Source: Escherichia phage vB_EcoM_WFH. From it: a DNA stretch of 64,000 nucleotides. Below are positions 1 through 53,888 of the stretch, in pieces. The position numbers were made by a program, and so were the translations under genes. Within the stretch, counting starts at the first letter, position 1. The number at the start of each line of letters is the position of its first letter. The notes below the pieces were generated by a model. It was given only the letters and a program-made list of their open reading frames with translations, searched no databases and was not told the origin of the DNA. The stretch lies in the sequence record NC_048194.1, one strand, 5' to 3'.

Positions 1-135
1 ATTTTGAATTAATTTAAATTAATTTTTTTCTACATCCTCATACTTATACTAAACTTATATTTATACGTATTATCCGTAAGATATAAGTAAAAACAAAGAC
101 TTGCGGCAATACGGATGATACGTCATGATACGCTT
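1..135. repeat. AT-rich tract plus iteron-like ATCCGTA / TACGGATGATACG motifs; partial second copy of the element at 16040-16320
   Basis: Read directly: 1-60 is almost pure A/T; ATCCGTA at 72-78, TACGGATGATACG at 110-122, ATGATACG at 125-132; same 9-mer family as the 16-kb element. Confidence 0.5.
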
Positions 136-279
136 CAACCAGCCAGCAGCGGCTAAGTCATTGATTTGCATAACAAGCGGCGAAAGGGATGGATTTCTTT
201 TATGCGTATCAAACAGTACACCACGCACCACGGTCCGATATTCATTCAGCACTATGATTTATGTACTTTTACAGCCAAT

Positions 280-308
280 TTGAACATCAATCTGCACTTG
301 AATATAAT
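280..308 (+). promoter_or_regulatory. sigma70-like promoter upstream of CDS 361-834
   Basis: TTGAAC (280-285), 17-nt spacer, TATAAT (303-308). Confidence 0.4.
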
Positions 309-360
309 GTTCAATCATTGTATAATTCACACTATTAATTTGCACTATGGGATTTGCACT

Positions 361-834
361 ATGAGTCAAGATTATGTAGCAATGCCTGAAGACTTTGAAG
401 ACCCGCGATTTGCAGAGCATAATCAGGCATTATTCGATGAGTTCATTGACCTTGTTATTCAGGGCCATGACATGCGCGCAGCTTTTGCACTAGTATTTGG
501 CATGGAGGTTGCGACCGATAACTACACTGGCCAGCGAATCCTGTGCACTCAGCGCAACCCGTACTACAAGATGCGCTACAAAAAGCGCATGGAAGAAATG
601 CCATTGAAGGAATTGTGGAGCGTAAAAAGTTCCATCCACAATTTAGTGAAGCTTGTGCGTGATCCAGAAGTCGCGGCGTCAGCCAAGCTTAATGCCATTC
701 GTGAACTGAATATCATCTACGGCATCACGATGATTGATGAAAATGGCAATAGTAAAATGGGCCGTTCCATGGACGATTTCTACAAGGATTTTGGAGAGGC
801 AGCCAAAGAGGGTGAGCAATTCTCCCGCCACTAG
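361..834 (+). CDS. Hypothetical HTH-like DNA-binding protein, possibly small terminase-like
   Basis: ORF 166-834 trimmed to the ATG at 361, which sits inside an ATTTGCACTAT copy; segment FDEFIDLVIQGHDMRAAFALVFG resembles small-terminase N-terminal HTHs; function not established. Confidence 0.45.
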   Translation: MSQDYVAMPEDFEDPRFAEHNQALFDEFIDLVIQGHDMRAAFALVFGMEVATDNYTGQRILCTQRNPYYKMRYKKRMEEMPLKELWSVKSSIHNLVKLVRDPEVAASAKLNAIRELNIIYGITMIDENGNSKMGRSMDDFYKDFGEAAKEGEQFSRH

Positions 835-853
835 CCAATTTGCACTATAAAAC

Positions 854-887
854 GGCCCTAGAACACATTTTCTCCACTTCTAGGGCC
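854..887. terminator. Stem-loop GGCCCTAGAA / TTCTAGGGCC with 14-nt loop, candidate intrinsic terminator
   Basis: Perfect 10-bp inverted repeat; T-rich flank only when read on the minus strand. Confidence 0.35.
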
Positions 888-1262
888 GTTGGTAATACGA
901 CGGGGAAGGCTGCAACCATGAACGCGTTAGAAAGTGTATTATTATAAGTCATCTTTTAGTCACTTTACGTAACAATTTACGACCTTCCGCCGTCCAGTCG
1001 AACGACTCCACCAGCAGATTTGCACTATAACCTAAGACGATGCGCCCCTTCTCGTTATCGACCCGCCAACAAGTCTCGAATAGCATTCGATTTGCACTAT
1101 TAACTATCGCCGCAACGCGCGTTGGGTAAGCGCAATTTGCACTATGGTCGTAAAGGGATAAGGTGCGACCACTGCCGATGGACAACGTAGCGATGAGAAT
1201 AAGCGTATTCATAAGCCACCAATTTGCACTATGAAAAGCGACCCCGAAGGGCCGCCATTCGA

Positions 1263-1889
1263 TTAGATAATCTGGAAGGTGTAGGACTTGTTGCCGAACT
1301 CGAAGTTCAAGCGCCCAGCTTCCTTAAGCTTCATGCGGAAGCGAATATGTTTGCTATCCGGTAAGCCCAGCGCGGCGAACGCTACGCGGACCGATTTGAA
1401 CTCGCCTACACCCTCGACCATAACGGCGTTACGGGTGAGACGCTTTTGCGCCACTTCCTTGTTATCCCAACTTTTTGCAATACCTTCGCTATTAGAACGG
1501 CGATGGGAAGGAGTTCCATTTTGCACTACGCAATTTGCACTATCGTTTAGGCCGCTCTTAACGAAGGCTTCATACTCTTCGTCGGTCATCGCGTCGAGTT
1601 CTTCCTGAGTCGGCTCGGCCTTTTTAACGACCGCACGCGCCTTATGCGTTTTTACATCGCTGGACACTTCCTCGCGCGGCTTCGCGTCGGGGATGGGCAA
1701 TTCGTTGGACGGCTCATCGAGCGCGTTTAAGGACTCGATTAACGCGATGACGCGAGTCTCAGCGGTGCGACGGTCCACAAACTTCTTAATCGGTTTTGAG
1801 CCGGAGTTGGCATTATAGAATGCAACGAGGTCGGCGGTCTTAGTTGCGATAACGTCGCCGCTAGTAGAAAAGCGATTTAAGCTAACCAT
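1263..1889 (-). CDS. Hypothetical protein, first gene of the CG-rich island
   Basis: 208-aa ORF; consensus RBS AGGAG before the ATG at 1889; two ATTTGCACTAT copies lie inside it. Confidence 0.6.
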   Translation of the reverse strand: MVSLNRFSTSGDVIATKTADLVAFYNANSGSKPIKKFVDRRTAETRVIALIESLNALDEPSNELPIPDAKPREEVSSDVKTHKARAVVKKAEPTQEELDAMTDEEYEAFVKSGLNDSANCVVQNGTPSHRRSNSEGIAKSWDNKEVAQKRLTRNAVMVEGVGEFKSVRVAFAALGLPDSKHIRFRMKLKEAGRLNFEFGNKSYTFQII

Positions 1890-1969
1890 AATAAACTCCT
1901 ATTTGTTAGGGCGCTAGGCGCGAAAGAATTTTATTAAAGCGCCGCGCACGACGCTCTAAAAATCCTCTC

Positions 1970-2284
1970 TTACTCTTCGTCGTCTTCGATTAATTCGAAG
2001 GCGAAGGCATAAGCTTTGCTATCGTAATTAACTAAAACGGCGAGTTCGAACTCGTTAATAAACGCCGTTTTACCGCATAAATTTAATTCCGCATCGACTT
2101 CGAAGAATCCGTTTTCGTCGCGCTCTAAGCGAGAAGCAGCGAGTTGCTCGATTACCGTCGCGTCGTTAATTTCTTCGCCTAAGCGAACGCCGGAGAATTT
2201 CGCGAGAATTTCGCCGTAAGTAAGCGTAACACCCTGGACTTCGGCGGTTGCGTTTTCGAGGGTGAAGCGGGTAACGATAGCCAT
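1970..2284 (-). CDS. Small strongly acidic protein (paralog family member A)
   Basis: 104 aa, net charge about -15, ends ELIEDDEE; RBS AGGAG; driven by the minus-strand promoter cassette at 2353-2380. Confidence 0.65.
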   Translation of the reverse strand: MAIVTRFTLENATAEVQGVTLTYGEILAKFSGVRLGEEINDATVIEQLAASRLERDENGFFEVDAELNLCGKTAFINEFELAVLVNYDSKAYAFAFELIEDDEE

Positions 2285-2352
2285 TTTAAACTCCTAGTTG
2301 GGAGAGGCGTTAACGACCTATTCGTTAACTCATCCCGTCCCGATATGAGTAC

Positions 2353-2380
2353 ATTATAATATAGTGTAGAAAAAAGTAAA
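2353..2380 (-). promoter_or_regulatory. sigma70-type promoter cassette, copy 1 (leftward)
   Basis: On the minus strand TTTACT, 16-nt spacer containing CTACACT, TATAAT; leader hairpin GAGTTAACGAATAGGTCGTTAAC matches the leader of copy 3. Confidence 0.6.
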
Positions 2381-2424
2381 GCACTTTTTCGATAAAAATG
2401 CGATAAATTATTTTATCTTTTTTC

Positions 2425-2452
2425 TTTACTTCTTCGTACACTCGCGTATACT
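2425..2452 (+). promoter_or_regulatory. sigma70-type promoter cassette, copy 2
   Basis: TTTACT (2425-2430), 16-nt spacer TCTTCGTACACTCGCG, TATACT (2447-2452). Confidence 0.6.
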
Positions 2453-2508
2453 TGTTTATATCGAGACGGGCGATGGCCCTTTCTTCTACTAGCATCGGGA
2501 GCTTTATT

Positions 2509-2811
2509 ATGACTACTTTAATCTCTTCCATCCTTACTTACGACGAAGACCGCTTAACCGTTCGCTCTCTTATCGCCGCCGTTAACGCGGAACTAGAATC
2601 TAGCGCCATCAAGGTCCGTGCCGTTGCCTTCGTCGGCCTTTCCTTCGACGATATTAAGTATGCAGAGTATAGCGCCATTCGCGTTGTTACTACCGACGAT
2701 AACGCCGTTACCCTTATCGAGACGGTTACGCCGCGCGGCGAAGCGTTAATTATCGTCGAGTATATCGACGTAGAAGGCGATAAAGCTTATAAATATTTTA
2801 TCGCAGAATAA
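2509..2811 (+). CDS. Small acidic protein (paralog family member B)
   Basis: ORF 2452-2811 trimmed to the ATG at 2509 after GGGAG; about 100 aa, net charge about -8; C-terminal DKAYKYF resembles SKAYAFAF of member A. Confidence 0.6.
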   Translation: MTTLISSILTYDEDRLTVRSLIAAVNAELESSAIKVRAVAFVGLSFDDIKYAEYSAIRVVTTDDNAVTLIETVTPRGEALIIVEYIDVEGDKAYKYFIAE

Positions 2812-2821
2812 CGAAAAGTGC

Positions 2822-2850
2822 TTTACTTCTTCGTACACTAAGACTATAAT
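2822..2850 (+). promoter_or_regulatory. sigma70-type promoter cassette, copy 3
   Basis: TTTACT (2822-2827), 17-nt spacer TCTTCGTACACTAAGAC, TATAAT (2845-2850); followed by leader hairpin GGTAGCG-AATAGGT-CGCTACC and RBS AGGAGA. Confidence 0.65.
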
Positions 2851-2917
2851 GTTTTATATCGAGAGGGGATGAGGTAGCGAATAGGTCGCTACCCTCCCGA
2901 CTAACTAGGAGAATATT

Positions 2918-3208
2918 ATGATTACTTTAGCCGCTATCCGTTCCGCTCGCGTCGAAACTTCCGAAAACTCTAACGTATTTGGCGAAAAACTTAAAAACGT
3001 TTATCTCTTTAACGTAGATGCGACTATCGAAGAGCTTCATAGTCCTATCGATTTTAGCGAATTTACGGAACTCGAAGAGGAAGATATTACTACCTTCCGC
3101 GTTACTATCGAAGGTAAGGTTTATTTTGCTACGGAGTTCGGCGGCGAATATCTCGCGGTATCCGAAGGCGAAGGCCGTTACTCTTTCTTTAAAATCGTCT
3201 CCTTATAA
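2918..3208 (+). CDS. Small acidic protein (paralog family member C)
   Basis: 96 aa, net charge about -10 (ELEEEDITT); RBS AGGAGA. Confidence 0.65.
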   Translation: MITLAAIRSARVETSENSNVFGEKLKNVYLFNVDATIEELHSPIDFSEFTELEEEDITTFRVTIEGKVYFATEFGGEYLAVSEGEGRYSFFKIVSL

Positions 3209-3228
3209 TACCCTTCCGTTACTAATAG

Positions 3229-3254
3229 GCCGCGCTTAGTCGCGGCTTTTCTTC
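3229..3254 (+). terminator. Rho-independent terminator
   Basis: GCCGCG-CTTAGT-CGCGGC followed by TTTTCTTCG, immediately after the CDS ending at 3208. Confidence 0.6.
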
Positions 3255-3372
3255 GTCCCTATCTCGATGCGCTTCTCCGCGAAAACTCCTTTATCCTTCC
3301 CTTCGTCGTCGCATAATCTTCGTCGAGATGCGCCTTAGTTCGCATAACAGGTATTACGTTAAATGGAGAACA

Positions 3373-3448
3373 TCGCGTAAGTCCTTGTTTTATATAGACA
3401 CCTATATCGGACCGTTAGGGAGGGTCGCGCAAGTCGTTGTTTTATAAA
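3373..3448 (+). repeat. Imperfect 24-bp direct repeat pair in a non-coding region
   Basis: TCGCGTAAGTCCTTGTTTTATATA (3373-3396) and TCGCGCAAGTCGTTGTTTTATAAA (3425-3448). Confidence 0.55.
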
Positions 3449-3571
3449 GGCGCAAAACTTTCCCTTCGTTCCGAACTAAAACGAGAAATATGCCGACCCT
3501 TCGCCCGAAAATAGTACGCATGCGAAATTACATGTATCTAGAATAATCCCCACCGATATTATCCTACACGC

Positions 3572-3629
3572 AATCATTAGCTTTCGAATCATTATGCTTC
3601 ATACTATTATGCGTCGAATCATTCGCTTT
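3572..3629 (+). repeat. Three direct copies of a 14-mer, GAATCATT(A/C)NGCTT
   Basis: Copies at about 3572, 3586 and 3616. Confidence 0.55.
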
Positions 3630-3723
3630 CTAATTGTAACGCTGGAAACTGTAACGGCGATTGATTATTGCGTTCGTGTGGTTTTTAGGGCATGGGTCTT
3701 TTGGTGCGTTTTGGTACTTGATG

Positions 3724-3836
3724 AAATTTGCAGTACACTAATCAAAATACGACACATTTGGTCCACTAACTTTTCAAAGAAAAAGTCCTAGACAGTACCG
3801 TACTATTTTGTACCCACAGTAAATTTGCAGTACACT
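3724..3836 (+). repeat. Two identical 16-mers AAATTTGCAGTACACT, 97 bp apart
   Basis: 3724-3739 and 3821-3836; the GTACACT core also sits in the spacers of promoter cassettes 2 and 3. Confidence 0.6.
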
Positions 3837-3905
3837 CCTGCGCGGCAGGCAAAAGAAAGGGCCGCCACAGCGACCCACGATTCACGGTTAAATCAGCAAC
3901 ACCCA

Positions 3906-4286
3906 CTATTCACTCTTATGGGCATCACCAAAGCCATCCGCAATCTGGCTGATCAATGATTCAATGGACACAGTTTTACCAATTGATCGAGCGGTAATAG
4001 CAAGCATATTATCAATCAAACCATGATTGGATGCATATGGTCCAGGTTTTGAATCATCTTCATGACAACCAAAAAGCTGATCGCGAAGACTTTCAAGAGA
4101 ACGCTCAATATTTTCCAGCTTCTCTTCTAAATCGGATTGGCGACGTAAAACCCATGTTAAGTCGCGGTTGCCGACTTCCAATCCATCATAATCGCAAGAT
4201 GGAACGTTAATTTTGATACTTCCACCAAAGGCCATTCCGCTGCCTTTAGCACATGTGCCGTGAATGGAATCATTCTTATTTGACAT
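3906..4286 (-). CDS. Hypothetical protein with a coiled-coil segment
   Basis: ORF 3906-4316 trimmed to the ATG preceded by AAAGGT; segment DLEEKLENIERSLESLRDQL. Confidence 0.5.
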   Translation of the reverse strand: MSNKNDSIHGTCAKGSGMAFGGSIKINVPSCDYDGLEVGNRDLTWVLRRQSDLEEKLENIERSLESLRDQLFGCHEDDSKPGPYASNHGLIDNMLAITARSIGKTVSIESLISQIADGFGDAHKSE

Positions 4287-4320
4287 ATCATTACCTTTCA
4301 TGAGGGTGATTAACAATAAC

Positions 4321-4344
4321 TATAATAAAGCCGCGTAGCGCGGC
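4321..4344 (-). terminator. Candidate intrinsic terminator
   Basis: GCCGCG-TAG-CGCGGC; on the minus strand it is followed by TTTATTATA. Confidence 0.45.
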
Positions 4345-4395
4345 ATTCAAATCGGTTTATTAATTGTAACGATTGGATTCATCAATCGATACCAA

Positions 4396-4615
4396 CTATG
4401 CTGGGTCGCCGGATACGGTCGAGCCAATGATGCCCATCTGCTGAAAGAACTCTGAATAAACTTCCTTCCAGTATTTACGGGCTGCTTTCTGTGCTTGGCC
4501 TTTGCGCTTGAAGCTTTTACCTTTTACCTTGAAATATGAAACGGTCTTTTGGCGCGGAATACTCCACCACACCTTCCAGCCATTGTAAGAATGCTACTGA
4601 TTCATTTTGATTCAT
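4396..4615 (-). CDS. Small ORF split across two frames; possible frameshifted or recoded gene
   Basis: ATG at 4615 with RBS GAGGT gives a 32-codon frame ending at 4517; an overlapping frame continues protein-like (KGQAQKAARKYWKEVYSEFFQQMG) to 4396; A-runs at the junction. Confidence 0.25.
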
Positions 4616-9030: not shown

Positions 9031-9245
9031 CAGTCTTCACCTTGAGATTCAAGACAAGTAAGAACAAGCCACGTCATCGGAAGAATCAAAACCAGAGAAA
9101 TAAGTGACCAAATGGACCAACACAAGATGACAGACTTGAATGTATGAACGTCGCCAAACACAGCAGTGAAACAAAATCCCATCACGAAAGCAAGCGCGGT
9201 GGAGTGGTTGTCAATGGCTTTGATGGCACGGTCGATGAGTTTCAT
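9030..9245 (-). CDS. Small membrane protein
   Basis: 71 aa with two hydrophobic helices. Confidence 0.5.
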   Translation of the reverse strand: MKLIDRAIKAIDNHSTALAFVMGFCFTAVFGDVHTFKSVILCWSIWSLISLVLILPMTWLVLTCLESQGED

Positions 9246-9319
9246 ATTACCTCCGGTTTTGAGTTAATATGATTATAACGCAGAGTTTCAGAAAGGCAAA
9301 CTTTTTGTGAATTTAAATT

Positions 9320-9350
9320 AAAAAAATGGCCAGATTATTTCTGGCCAAAA
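9320..9350 (-). terminator. Hairpin with flanking A7/T7 tract; terminator-like on the minus strand
   Basis: AAAAAAA-TGGCCAGA-TTATT-TCTGGCCA-AAAG. Confidence 0.4.
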
Positions 9351-9422
9351 GATCACCCTTTATCCACTACTAAGCTGGAATCACAATTTTACTTGATATA
9401 GCTGTCGCAAGCAAACTATAAT

Positions 9423-10883
9423 ATGAATAAAATATTAACACATAATTGGAAAGTCATGTACCAGTTGAATCCTGCTTTAAGAGAAGTCTGGAAGACGAAA
9501 GCGCGATACAAAGTCATATACGGCGGTCGTGCATCTTCCAAATCGCACGATGCCGCTGGTTTTGCTATTTATTTGGCGGCAAACTTCAAATTAAAATTCC
9601 TTTGCGTTCGACAATTCCAGAACAAGATTTCTGAATCAGTATATACGCTATTAAAAGATAAAATAGAGATTTCTGATTTTAAAGACGAGTTCAACTTATT
9701 AAAAAACTCTATTGAACACAAAAGAACAAAATCTGAATTTTTATTTTACGGTATCGCACGCAACGTTGACGAAATCAAATCAACAGAAGGTGTTGATGTT
9801 CTTTGGCTTGAAGAAGCGCATGCACTGACTGAAGAGCAATGGGACATTATTGAGCCGACAATTCGTAAGGAAGGGTCCGAAATATGGATCATATTTAACC
9901 CTGATGAAGAGGCTGATTTCGTCTACCAGAACTTTGTTATGCGACCGCCGAAAAATGCCATCGTTAAGAAGATTAACTGGCAGGACAATCCATTCTTGTC
10001 GCAAACAATGCTGGATGTTATCGCTGGCATGTATGAGCGCGACCCGAAAAAGGCAGAACACGTTTATGGCGGAGTGCCGAAGACAGGTGGCGATAAGTCG
10101 GTCATCAACCGTGCATTCGTCAAAGCCGCGCTAAACCTCCACAAACACCCTACGCTGGGATGGAGCTTGTCAGGGTCTAACCGTATAGGCTTCGACGTGG
10201 CGGACGACGGCGACGACTTAAACGCCACAGCGTTTGTCACAGGCAACGTATTACGTGGCATCAAGACATGGGAAGGTCTGGAAGATGAATTGCTTAAGTC
10301 CGCAAGCGGAGTCTGGAAAGACGCATTGACATTCGGCGCATCAATCACCTATGACGCCATCGGTGTTGGTGCATTTGCTGGTTCAAAATTTGATGAGCTT
10401 AATGAGTATGCAATCCATGAAAATCCAACATTCCCAAGAATCGAATTTAATGCGTTCAACGCGCAAGGTGCTGTTGATGATCCTGATGACGTCTTCCTTG
10501 AGTTACCACACGTTGAAATACTCAATAAAGACCATTTCGCAAACATAAAAGCGCAAAAATGGACTGAGATTGCCGAACGATTCAGAAAGACATATGAGTA
10601 TGCGACAGGGCAAGCCGTATATCCGACCGATGAGTTGATTTCCATCGACACAGACGGCATCCCAGAACTTGGTATTCCCGCTTGGTCTGCGGAAGAAATT
10701 GAGACGTTTCTTTTTGAGATGTCAGCACCGCGCAAAGACACGTCTGTACTTGGCAAGTTCAAAGTTGAATCGAAAAAGGATATGGCAAAGCGTGGAGTCA
10801 AATCGCCTAACAAAGCGGACGCAGCAATCATGGCATTGATGAAACCAATTGTTGCAGCATCCGGCTTCTTCTCTAACCTTTAA
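9423..10883 (+). CDS. terL: Terminase large subunit
   Basis: Walker A GGRASSKSH near the N-terminus, Walker B-like VLWLEEAH, nuclease-type C-terminal half; 486 aa; portal follows. Confidence 0.9.
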   Translation: MNKILTHNWKVMYQLNPALREVWKTKARYKVIYGGRASSKSHDAAGFAIYLAANFKLKFLCVRQFQNKISESVYTLLKDKIEISDFKDEFNLLKNSIEHKRTKSEFLFYGIARNVDEIKSTEGVDVLWLEEAHALTEEQWDIIEPTIRKEGSEIWIIFNPDEEADFVYQNFVMRPPKNAIVKKINWQDNPFLSQTMLDVIAGMYERDPKKAEHVYGGVPKTGGDKSVINRAFVKAALNLHKHPTLGWSLSGSNRIGFDVADDGDDLNATAFVTGNVLRGIKTWEGLEDELLKSASGVWKDALTFGASITYDAIGVGAFAGSKFDELNEYAIHENPTFPRIEFNAFNAQGAVDDPDDVFLELPHVEILNKDHFANIKAQKWTEIAERFRKTYEYATGQAVYPTDELISIDTDGIPELGIPAWSAEEIETFLFEMSAPRKDTSVLGKFKVESKKDMAKRGVKSPNKADAAIMALMKPIVAASGFFSNL

Positions 10884-53042: not shown

Positions 53043-53888
53043 TTATTCCGCTTGATCACCGTCTTCGGCATCTTCGTTGGGTTCAACATCGACAAACTCG
53101 ATGTGGCCCATCTCTTCCAGCTTGCTCAGGTAGGAGCGAACGGAAGCGCCAAACAGTTGATCTTTAACTTTTTCGCCCAGCTCATCGATAGACTGCGCCA
53201 CGCCAACTTCGCCTTCTTTGATCGCCGCCAGAACGCGTCCACGGGTGGAATGCTCTTGCGGCTGGCTCAGGCCATTGCCAGTGTAGATGAAGTGAGTAGC
53301 TTTTGCACGACGTTGACCGTTTGCCTTTTTAGCGGCCTTACGTTCTGCGATGGCTTTGCGACGTTCTTCAGCTTCTTTCTTACGCTGTTCTTTCTGTTGT
53401 TCTGCAGCTTCTTTCGCCGCAATCTTAGCAGCTTCACGCTCTGCCTTGCGTTTCGCTTTAGCTTCTTCTTTGGCCTTCTCTTTTTCGGCCTTCGCTGCAG
53501 CACGGGCTTGATCACGCTCTGCTTTCTTAGCAGCAGCTTGTTCAGCTTTCAGGCGCTTGGCTTCTTCTTTAGCCTTTGCCTTTTCGATTTCTTTTGCTGC
53601 TTTAGCGGCTTCACGCTCTGCTTTCTTAGCAGCAGCCTTTTCTGCACGCTCTTTAGCTTTCTTAGCTGCTTCTTCAGCACGCTTCTGAGCCTTCTCATCA
53701 GCAGCCTGCTTGCGTTTCAGGGCAGCTTCTTCACGCTTGGCTTGTTTTTCCTGCTCACGCTTCTGGCGTTTTTCTTCGGCTTCTTTCTTTTTAGCCAGAC
53801 GTTTTTCTTCAGCCACGCGACGGCGTTCTGCTGCAGCTGCTTGCTTTTCTTCTTTAGATAATACTTTGATTGCTTCGGCCATATTCAC
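53043..53888 (-). CDS. ER/K-rich single-alpha-helix protein with C-terminal winged-helix-like domain
   Basis: About 170 aa of Lys/Glu/Ala/Arg repeats then a globular C-terminus (RVLAAIKEGEVGVAQSIDELGEKV ... YLSKLEEMGHIEF). Confidence 0.6.
   Translation of the reverse strand: MNMAEAIKVLSKEEKQAAAAERRRVAEEKRLAKKKEAEEKRQKREQEKQAKREEAALKRKQAADEKAQKRAEEAAKKAKERAEKAAAKKAEREAAKAAKEIEKAKAKEEAKRLKAEQAAAKKAERDQARAAAKAEKEKAKEEAKAKRKAEREAAKIAAKEAAEQQKEQRKKEAEERRKAIAERKAAKKANGQRRAKATHFIYTGNGLSQPQEHSTRGRVLAAIKEGEVGVAQSIDELGEKVKDQLFGASVRSYLSKLEEMGHIEFVDVEPNEDAEDGDQAE

Follow-up and report, generated by a model that had tools for sequence, protein, structure and literature searches.

In phage T5, the left terminal repeat of 10 kb has at its inner end Repeat Region 3 (AY587007, positions 9194 to 10409), an untranslated block of approximately 1.2 kb that has been proposed to hold the injection stop signal (iss), a function that is itself still hypothetical. 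The cos site of phage lambda combines the nicking site cosN with cosB, which carries R sites for the small terminase and the IHF site I1. In T7-like phages with a direct terminal repeat (DTR), it is established that both boundaries of the single DTR copy in the concatemer are recognized and cut and that the repeat is duplicated. The concatemer junction of T7 and T3 reportedly also holds arrays of short repeats (SRL and SRR) beside the terminal repeat, as well as pac signals. Here, we compare with these systems a repeat-bearing, gene-free stretch at positions 3209 to 3905 of a 64,000-nucleotide sequence from Escherichia phage vB_EcoM_WFH (NC_048194.1), a Wifcevirus phage; we refer to the 64-kb sequence as the window. 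The stretch contains the right-hand end of the DTR, and by analogy with the described systems, we consider it probable, though far from certain, that it is a cis-acting module for the recognition and processing of that end during packaging. Architecturally, T5 Repeat Region 3 appears to be its closest analogue, and lambda cosB may serve as a looser, functional one.

We placed the window on the phage genome by comparison with related records. A megablast search with positions 2800 to 4400 matched 27 phage records (89 to 98% identity), all from the Wifcevirus group of E. coli and Shigella myoviruses and including WFC, WFH, ECML-117, Mansfield, and Bas98 to Bas101. The window starts with the bases (ATTTT...) that open the records of WFC, Mansfield, SA1, Ro157lw, and SP13, and its gene coordinates agree with those of WFC within 2 bp and with those of Mansfield up to approximately 2.3 kb, beyond which Mansfield is approximately 30 bp shorter. 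Because the start sequence and the gene coordinates match those of its relatives, position 1 of the window is, by this comparison, the physical left end of the Wifcevirus genome. Wifcevirus phages have a DTR of approximately 3.7 kb, which the Mansfield record (MK903282) annotates, following a PhageTerm prediction, as repeat_region 1..3673.

To locate the right-hand end of the DTR, we compared both copies of the repeat in the records that hold two (Ro157lw, SP13, SA1, and WFC). In Ro157lw, SP13, and SA1, the duplicated end stops with GGGCATGGGTCTTT, followed by TGGTGCG, which is the same sequence as in Mansfield and corresponds to window positions 3702/3703; the boundary common to these four phages can also be written as GGGTCTTT followed by TGGTGCG. 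The two DTR copies match perfectly within Ro157lw and within SP13, there are 24 differences between those of SA1, and the Mansfield record does not include a duplicated right copy. Whichever end holds, that at 3702/3703 or the one at 3782/3783 in the WFC record, the DTR end falls inside the gene-free stretch as aligned here, and it is, on the same comparison, the sequence of the right terminus of the virion. The ends of WFC and WFH were set where PacBio reads stopped and may not be exact to the base. The boundary itself is not new to the records, as one relative, Mansfield, has it annotated. It is the decisive context for this locus, and the preliminary description of this DNA, made from the letters of the window, could not see it. 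The SA1 record (PQ604604.1, ECP_WGS_SA1), which is labeled "unverified", is 71,283 bp long, equal to the size of WFH given by Korf et al.; 24 differences between two copies are unusual for a true DTR. Dinucleotide composition differs between the two sides of the boundary. Over most of the DTR (900 to 3650), in coding and noncoding DNA alike, the observed/expected ratio is 1.4 to 2.35 for CpG and 1.0 to 1.4 for TpA, and in the unique region beyond 3900, it is mostly 0.9 to 1.1 for CpG and mostly 0.5 to 0.9 for TpA, with the switch at approximately 3600 to 3700, at the DTR end.

The preliminary description had noted a gene-free region between convergent genes, and this was borne out. The stretch is bounded by the stop codons of two convergent genes, the intrinsic terminators on both sides are directed into it (Table 1), and no open reading frame (ORF) within it is conserved in 20 genomes. 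None of seven ORFs (33 to 65 aa) in 3250 to 3905 is intact in all 20 aligned genomes, and the variable sites show no excess at third codon positions (for example, counts of 16, 14, and 8 or of 17, 11, and 7). The noncoding stretch can nonetheless be aligned in all 27 Wifcevirus records, at 93 to 98% identity, except in Bas100 (88.9%), which has a 45-bp deletion. In 100-bp bins across 19 relatives, the stretch is 92 to 98% identical, compared to 73% for the coding bins at 3001 to 3200 and 83 to 94% for those at 4001 to 4600. Small indels are confined to the less conserved part to the right of 3835. We found no DNA homologues more distant than the 27 Wifcevirus records, and a TerS-based search for the locus in IMG/VR returned only close relatives.

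Table 1. Positions in the window of the sequence features discussed in the text.
Feature	Position	Strand	Description
25-mer, copy 1	3373..3397	+	Core TAAGTCCTTGTTT (3378-3390), matching the IHF consensus YAANNNNTTGATW with one mismatch, then an A/T-rich tract
25-mer, copy 2	3425..3449	+	Core CAAGTCGTTGTTT (3430-3442)
Other two YAAGTCNTTGWTT copies	91..166	91-103 minus, 154-166 plus	In the noncoding left DTR end; bracket TACGGATGATACG-type repeats
Degenerate periodic array	3542..3676		About nine 15-bp units (three 45-bp super-units), AATCATT/AATTGTA type
Most conserved box	3677..3723		4 variable sites in 47 bp; holds the DTR end 3702/3703 (...GGGCATGGGTCTTT, then TGGTGCG)
16-mer, copy 1, AAATTTGCAGTACACT	3724..3739	+	22 bp outside the DTR end
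16-mer, copy 2, AAATTTGCAGTACACT	3821..3836	+	119 bp outside the DTR end
Imperfect dyad	3692..3791		Centre 3741/3742; 27/50 positions complementary
Small terminase (TerS) gene	361..834	+	Inside the DTR; homologue of the Pseudomonas phage E217 TerS decamer (PDB 7UXE, E = 9e-33)
Left flanking gene	2918..3208	+	96 aa, function unassigned; last DTR gene; only ~73% identical among relatives
Right flanking gene	3906..4286	-	126 aa, function unassigned; first gene of the unique region
Intrinsic terminator, ends rightward early transcription	3227..3256	+	Stem 3227-3248 plus T run; annotated in WFC and Mansfield
Intrinsic terminator, ends leftward transcription of the tail-fibre-side operon	3850..3876	-	Stem 3876-3859 plus T run; annotated in WFC

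The repeats in the stretch are more than chance. The imperfect direct repeat previously given as 24 bp is real, and it is actually 25 nt long: its two copies are identical at 22 of 25 positions, lie in the same orientation 52 bp (five helical turns) apart, and have no other match in the 64 kb at up to 3 mismatches (0.00 expected). They contain the motif YAAGTCNTTGWTT, which occurs exactly four times in the window (0.07 expected), always in the noncoding ends of the DTR: at 91 (minus strand) and 154 (plus strand) at the left end and at 3378 and 3430 (both plus strand) in the gene-free stretch. Measured from the cut, the two copies at the right end are at -323 and -271 in all but Bas100, where they are at -278 and -226. 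All four copies are kept in 17 of 18 relatives, the other being RCIP0319, which has lost copy 1 by substitution. Written as YAA-NNNN-TTG(A/T)T-T with A/T-rich DNA behind it, the motif departs at one point from the IHF consensus YAANNNNTTGATW, whose other-strand form is WATCAANNNNTTR. The substitutions in the 13-nt cores of the two right-hand copies are restricted to Y or N positions; a further one is found outside the core. The site at 154 matches the IHF consensus WATCAANNNNTTR exactly, and the other three, at 91, 3378, and 3430, carry A instead of T at position 3 of WATCAANNNNTTR and keep the CA...TT core, which a review of oriC describes as the conserved part of IHF sites. Scans of 3201 to 3950 with strict IHF, Fis, and DnaA patterns gave no match, and the likeness to IHF sites emerges only if the T of ATCAA is not required.

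The extended core of this motif, AAGTCNTTGTTTTATAWAG, also turned up in exact-pattern scans of other genomes. It is locally repeated in two unrelated viral contigs (L185 and L196) and occurs at at least 120 loci in bacterial genomes with unrelated flanks. Across 111 distinct bacterial instances of this extended motif, the base in front of AAGTC, which the pattern leaves free, is T or C 83% of the time, and 12 of the 111 have a sigma-54 -24/-12 promoter 7 to 37 bp away, compared to approximately 0.3 expected by our own estimate. Proximity to a sigma-54 promoter is a characteristic setting of IHF sites, and this association supports the reading of the extended motif as a candidate IHF site. In L185 (IMGVR_UViG_3300010430_000127, approximately 1200 to 1650, minus strand), at least five copies of GTAAGTCATTGTTTTATAAAGGG, which has the same extended motif as the 25-mers, form an iteron-like cluster; the cluster is noncoding, adjoins a tandem repeat of CAACCTGG, and has neighboring proteins with no known function. 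A 590-bp contig assigned to Xanthomonas pisi DSM 18956 (NZ_JPLE01000250.1) matches the stretch around the 25-mers over the approximately 200 bp inspected, including the 52-bp spacing, most likely as a result of coliphage contamination of the Xanthomonas pisi assembly.

The three 14-mers of the GAATCATT type in the preliminary description proved to be part of a longer, degenerate array of 15-bp units. The array has AATCATT at 3572, 3587, and 3617 (start positions) and two copies of GAATCATT. The autocorrelation of the array is 0.47, 0.40, and 0.52 at lags of 15, 30, and 45, respectively, which was reached by none of 5,000 shuffles, and by this measure, the array region ranks third of 1,420 windows. 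The degenerate array was not detected by Tandem Repeats Finder. It ends 26 bp before the DTR end at 3702/3703. The only indel within the array among the relatives is the clean 45-bp deletion in Bas100 (3572 to 3616), which removes exactly three 15-bp units and is consistent with slippage between AATCATT units. In terms of overall repeat density, the stretch is in approximately the top 5% of 650-bp windows, and it is not the extreme of the window. The densest repeats and the strongest AT skew are found at 53043 to 53888 (minus strand), a coding repeat within a 281-aa ORF for a low-complexity protein rich in lysine, alanine, and glutamate.

The array is followed by the most conserved box of the stretch, which holds the DTR end, and then by the two 16-mers. 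As previously stated, the 16-mers are exact copies of each other (AAATTTGCAGTACACT at 3724 and 3821), and a third copy is not found in the window even at 3 mismatches. If the DTR ends at 3702, both 16-mers lie outside it; if the DTR ends at 3782, the 16-mers flank the end. Across the genus, the conserved form is AATTTGC-N-GTACACT with A, G, or C as the central base, a pattern of variation that would suit a two-part protein site. Because the matches in IMG/VR outside Wifcevirus are only single ones, several of them in evidently coding DNA, and have no conservation of flanks, the 16-mer motif is, as far as these sequences indicate, specific to the genus. The two reported ends, 3702/3703 and 3782/3783, are almost symmetric about the centre of an imperfect dyad, whose degree of complementarity is attained by only 4 of 63,840 centres in the window, and each end adjoins a word like GG(G/A)(T)CTTTT, on opposite strands. 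This relation may reflect two nick sites, alternative ends, or chance. A reading of GAATCATTAT as a Fur box was dropped, as only half-sites were present.

Given that substitutions among the 20 genomes hit degenerate positions and that the phasing of the repeats and their distances to the end are fixed, all three repeat families behave like DNA-binding sites. The earlier suggestion of a regulator-binding hub or a noncoding RNA locus is thus plausible as far as protein binding is concerned, in view of the site-like variation and phasing, but it is unsupported for noncoding RNA, for which all tests were null. We infer from sequence and analogy that the stretch acts as DNA rather than as a gene, that it binds proteins, and that it serves packaging or end processing.

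The left boundary of the DTR (63 to 212 in the window; 2960 to 3420 of L005 in concatemer form) has a different appearance. It lies inside an 850-bp noncoding zone, and its cut site is very AT-rich. A separate family of repeats, TACGGATGATACG, TACGTCATGATACG, and TTTTATCCGTATCA, occurs on both sides of this cut in direct and inverted orientation. The four-copy IHF-like family lies 90 to 325 bp from the ends of the DTR and is not visible in a comparison of motifs limited to 200 bp on either side of each boundary.

The arrangement of these elements suggests how the stretch could work in packaging. In replicating concatemers, one DTR copy would lie between two unit genomes, and the packaging machinery would have to recognize and cut both DTR boundaries and duplicate the repeat in order to place a DTR at both ends of the virion. 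The 650-bp stretch would be the recognition and processing site of the right-hand boundary. Here, the two in-phase IHF-type bending sites (3378 and 3430) would fold the DNA, and the array at 3542 to 3676 would dock an oligomeric end-binding protein, most simply the ring-shaped TerS (encoded at 361 to 834). The nearly invariant box at 3677 to 3723 would carry the cut at 3702/3703, the external AATTTGCNGTACACT sites (3724 and 3821) would mark the unique side, and the convergent terminators would shield the complex from run-through by RNA polymerase. This anatomy would resemble the nucleoprotein site expected for end recognition, and it echoes lambda cos, where IHF is needed for site-specific assembly of terminase. 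The TerS gene lies within the DTR, and so there are two copies of it per virion; in most records, it is called hypothetical. Phage E217, the source of the homologous TerS structure, is a Pbunavirus, a genus distantly related to Wifcevirus.

Several observations weigh against a module for end recognition and processing. Three of the four IHF-like copies lack the T of ATCAA that the classic consensus has, and GTC occupies the "N" positions of all four, which could mean that the binder is not IHF but a phage protein; at comparable sites in other phages, the enrichment of GTC is only mild (approximately 6% compared to 1.6% expected). The IHF-like sites are 260 to 325 bp from the cut, farther than I1 is in lambda cosB. 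E217 TerS shows no appreciable DNA binding in vitro. Bas100 is a viable isolate despite the loss of three of its approximately nine array units. No dyad symmetry was found at the cut site, 3702/3703, and the repeats of the left boundary (TACGGATGATACG type) differ from those of the right boundary. Because the two boundaries have no motif in common above shuffles within 200 bp on either side, a single recognizer for both DTR ends is not evident. There are also reservations about the position of the end: the WFC record has the DTR end 80 bp further to the right, and the window, which comprises 64 kb of a genome of approximately 71 to 72 kb, includes only the left DTR copy, so that we took the boundary from relatives that are 92 to 98% identical here. 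Finally, we assigned the roles of the boundary elements by position and analogy. As for what binds the four-copy sites, the sequences make IHF the leading candidate, although this is not established, and a phage protein with an IHF-like site could be an alternative.

T5 Repeat Region 3 and the Wifcevirus block have much of their layout in common. Both are untranslated, start after a terminator, and lie mostly inside a DTR that carries early genes, which they overrun by 270 bp in T5 and by approximately 200 bp in Wifcevirus. Both contain several unrelated families of direct repeats in a fixed order, and both blocks are conserved better across the genus than the ORFs of the DTR. A spacing of 52 bp (five helical turns) occurs in both, although it measures different things in the two. 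In contrast, we found no alignable homology between the two regions. T5 Repeat Region 3 has approximately eight paired DnaA/DnaA* boxes within inverted repeats (IRD'-spacer-IRC'), whereas TTWTNCACA is not matched at up to 1 mismatch in 3201 to 3950 of the window, and the inverted repeats of the Wifcevirus block are only short and weak, unlike the large ones of T5. The T5 DTR encodes the pre-early proteins A1 and A2, and T5 DNA enters in two steps, whereas the proteins of the Wifcevirus DTR, except TerS, have no annotated PHROG or Pfam family. In addition, T5 is a siphovirus with a DTR of approximately 10 kb, and the Wifcevirus phages are myoviruses with a DTR of 3.7 kb. Overall, the Wifcevirus block does not appear to be a member of the T5 Repeat Region 3 family, but by analogy, it may work like one.

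The likenesses to the other two systems are of a different kind. As in lambda cos, a cut site is flanked by repeated short sites and by what may be IHF-type bending sites, and a small terminase gene lies near the genome end. Lambda, however, has 12-nt cohesive ends, whereas Wifcevirus has a 3.7-kb direct repeat and a cut site without dyad symmetry, which does not fit cohesive ends of the lambda type. Compared to cosB, the distances are also larger (the IHF-like sites being those 260 to 325 bp from the cut), the units are degenerate and 15 bp long, and the Wifcevirus sites are predicted from sequence. In T7 and T3, as in Wifcevirus, imperfect, regularly spaced short repeats are said to abut the boundaries of the terminal repeat, and both boundaries are processed. 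The T7 repeat is reportedly 160 bp long with its arrays just outside it, whereas in Wifcevirus, the array is inside and the 16-mers are outside, and the sequences are unrelated. Mansfield, the nearest annotated case, is of the same genus and has the same boundary sequence; in its record, two short ORFs of the stretch are labeled "hypothetical protein", and these are not conserved across the genus.

The resemblance to T5 also fits a different role, a pause in DNA entry, in which the DTR, a region of strong sigma-70 promoters and small early genes, would enter the cell first and the repeats would hold injection until the early proteins had been made. The layout is close to that of a candidate injection stop signal, one that has several direct-repeat families and is better conserved than the ORFs of its terminal repeat, and the T5 repeats have core words in common with the stretch: GAATCATT and GATTGATT (both DRC), TGCAAAT (DRD), and TAAGTC..TTGAT (DRB). 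The stretch has 45 8-mers in common with the T5 region, compared to 22.8 for other windows (top 0.3%), and three promoters of the form TTTACT-N16-17-TATAAT/TATACT lie within the DTR. This k-mer sharing is not significant at k ≥ 9, however, and the control windows are mostly coding. The DnaA boxes that are conserved in the T5 region are not found here even at 1 mismatch, nor are large inverted repeats or palindromes; among the DTR proteins, which have no annotated PHROGs or Pfam family, we recognized no equivalent of A1 or A2; the DTR also holds TerS, a late function; and two-step entry has never been reported for Wifcevirus phages. We regard an entry pause as unlikely. A more specific version, two-stage delivery in a Wifcevirus myovirus in which the stop signal would be made of IHF-type bends rather than DnaA boxes, with GAATCATT- and TGCAAAT-type sites as in T5, seems slightly less likely than that. 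If it were true, coliphages that are unrelated but have long terminal repeats would have come by an entry-control device through convergence or exchange, and this could relate to the very short latent period reported for Wifcevirus. A replication origin or initiation region, in which the iteron-like 15-bp repeats and the IHF sites would organize an initiator complex, seems no more likely than an entry pause. Iteron-like arrays and IHF sites are typical of origins according to the review of oriC, the extended motif forms the noncoding, iteron-like cluster of at least five copies in viral contig L185, and the stretch is conserved, noncoding, and shielded from transcription. Yet DnaA boxes were not found; the stretch does not look markedly AT-rich (approximately 44% G+C in the bin at 3001 to 4000), strong AT-richness being found instead at the left DTR boundary; and PHROG and Pfam searches recognized no replication gene nearby. 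Moreover, the 15-bp units are short and degenerate, Bas100 manages without three of them, and the elements lie at fixed distances from the genome end, which is a better fit to the biology of ends.

The remaining explanations assign the stretch to gene regulation, to RNA, or to no dedicated function. A phage regulator might bind GTACACT sites both here and in the spacers of early promoters and thereby co-regulate the cassettes of small proteins, a connection first drawn in the preliminary description for what it called acidic-protein cassettes. The GTACACT core is indeed found in the spacers of two TTTACT-N17-TATAAT promoters (2436 and 2833), and a third promoter, on the minus strand, has CTACACT, so that [G/C]TACACT takes the same spacer position in all three promoters of the TTTACT type. 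Four of the six copies of GTACACT in the 64 kb fall within 2436 to 3836, each 16-mer can be read by eye as a weak promoter (TTGGTA/TTGTAC-N17-TACACT), and some relatives have an extra gene for a 70-aa "transcriptional regulator" just left of the stretch. On the other hand, GTACACT is not over-represented (6 copies compared to 4.1 expected across the 64 kb), only its seven bases are common to the promoters and the 16-mers, with different bases on the flanks, and the three promoters are evident duplicates whose common spacer need not be a binding site. The 16-mers have no obvious target gene, as the terminators face inward and no ORF lies downstream, and the repeats are fully conserved in phages without the "regulator" gene, the present one included. 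Co-regulation is a weak possibility, and we give a role of the stretch as an operator hub only a slim chance. A small noncoding RNA would accord with a stretch that is conserved and noncoding, and a weakly structured transcript is compatible with its sequence; we consider it very improbable, the least likely of all the readings. The tRNA and tmRNA scan of the stretch found none, no Rfam family reached its gathering score, and minimum-free-energy z-scores against shuffles on both strands (-0.68, +0.57, +1.37, and +0.34) gave no signal of stability. Alifold on 20 genomes, both strands, found zero compensatory pair changes and many predicted pairs broken, and the pattern of variation fits the degeneracy of DNA sites instead. 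A sigma-70 promoter scan gave no signal above chance (6 matches compared to 4.5 expected in 2200 to 4500) and only one weak match, on the minus strand, inside the stretch, and no conserved ORF follows a promoter-like match in the stretch among the ORFs tested. Lastly, the stretch could be a conserved linker, a recombination junction that frequent exchange between variable gene modules keeps similar and in which the repeats are relics. Its flanking genes are mosaic (73% identity on the left, with gain and loss of genes in relatives), as is typical of module boundaries. A linker would not explain, however, that substitutions avoid the core positions of the motifs, that the periodicity is significant, that the four-copy family is present at both DTR ends with a spacing fixed in nearly all relatives, or that the sole indel in the array is a clean deletion of three units. 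We find a linker hard to credit, more so than an operator hub and less so than an RNA gene.

The genes next to the stretch gave few clues of their own, as PHROG and Pfam searches of the flanking proteins were uninformative. In ECML-117, the extra 70-aa gene (gp19, at 1922 to 2131 of L006), which RefSeq calls a "transcriptional regulator", lies between the 96-aa gene and the terminator. It has equivalents in Ro157lw, SP13, FEC19, F13, and vB_Eco4M-7 and is absent from the present window; the repeat block is unchanged with or without it. The Mansfield record has "hypothetical protein" coding sequences at the equivalents of 3374 to 3493 and 3746 to 3910, and several ORFs are annotated here in phage kaset. 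These short coding sequences inside the noncoding block lack conservation across the genus and probably result from over-calling.

A module for recognizing and processing the end of the DTR would be a cis-acting repeat block at a phage terminal-repeat boundary, which is an expected kind of element, although one that is apparently undescribed for Wifcevirus. Neither the Wifcevirus literature that we examined nor the Mansfield record describes the repeat architecture, the four-copy IHF-type family, or the parallel with T5. Wifcevirus phages are candidates for the biocontrol of E. coli O157 and are reported to be unusually fast in replication. They have also been rebuilt by synthesis, vB_Eco4M-7 having been rebooted in this way. 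For genome design, the boundary elements indicate what to keep when these phages are rebooted or engineered, and for annotation, they bear on the several records that call nonconserved short ORFs in the stretch. For studies of packaging, the stretch offers a defined substrate for learning how a TerS of the E217 type, a poor DNA binder by itself, locates its site, perhaps aided by host IHF. Given its resemblance to T5 Repeat Region 3, the stretch would also provide a second and much smaller system in which to study the role of repeat blocks at DTR ends.

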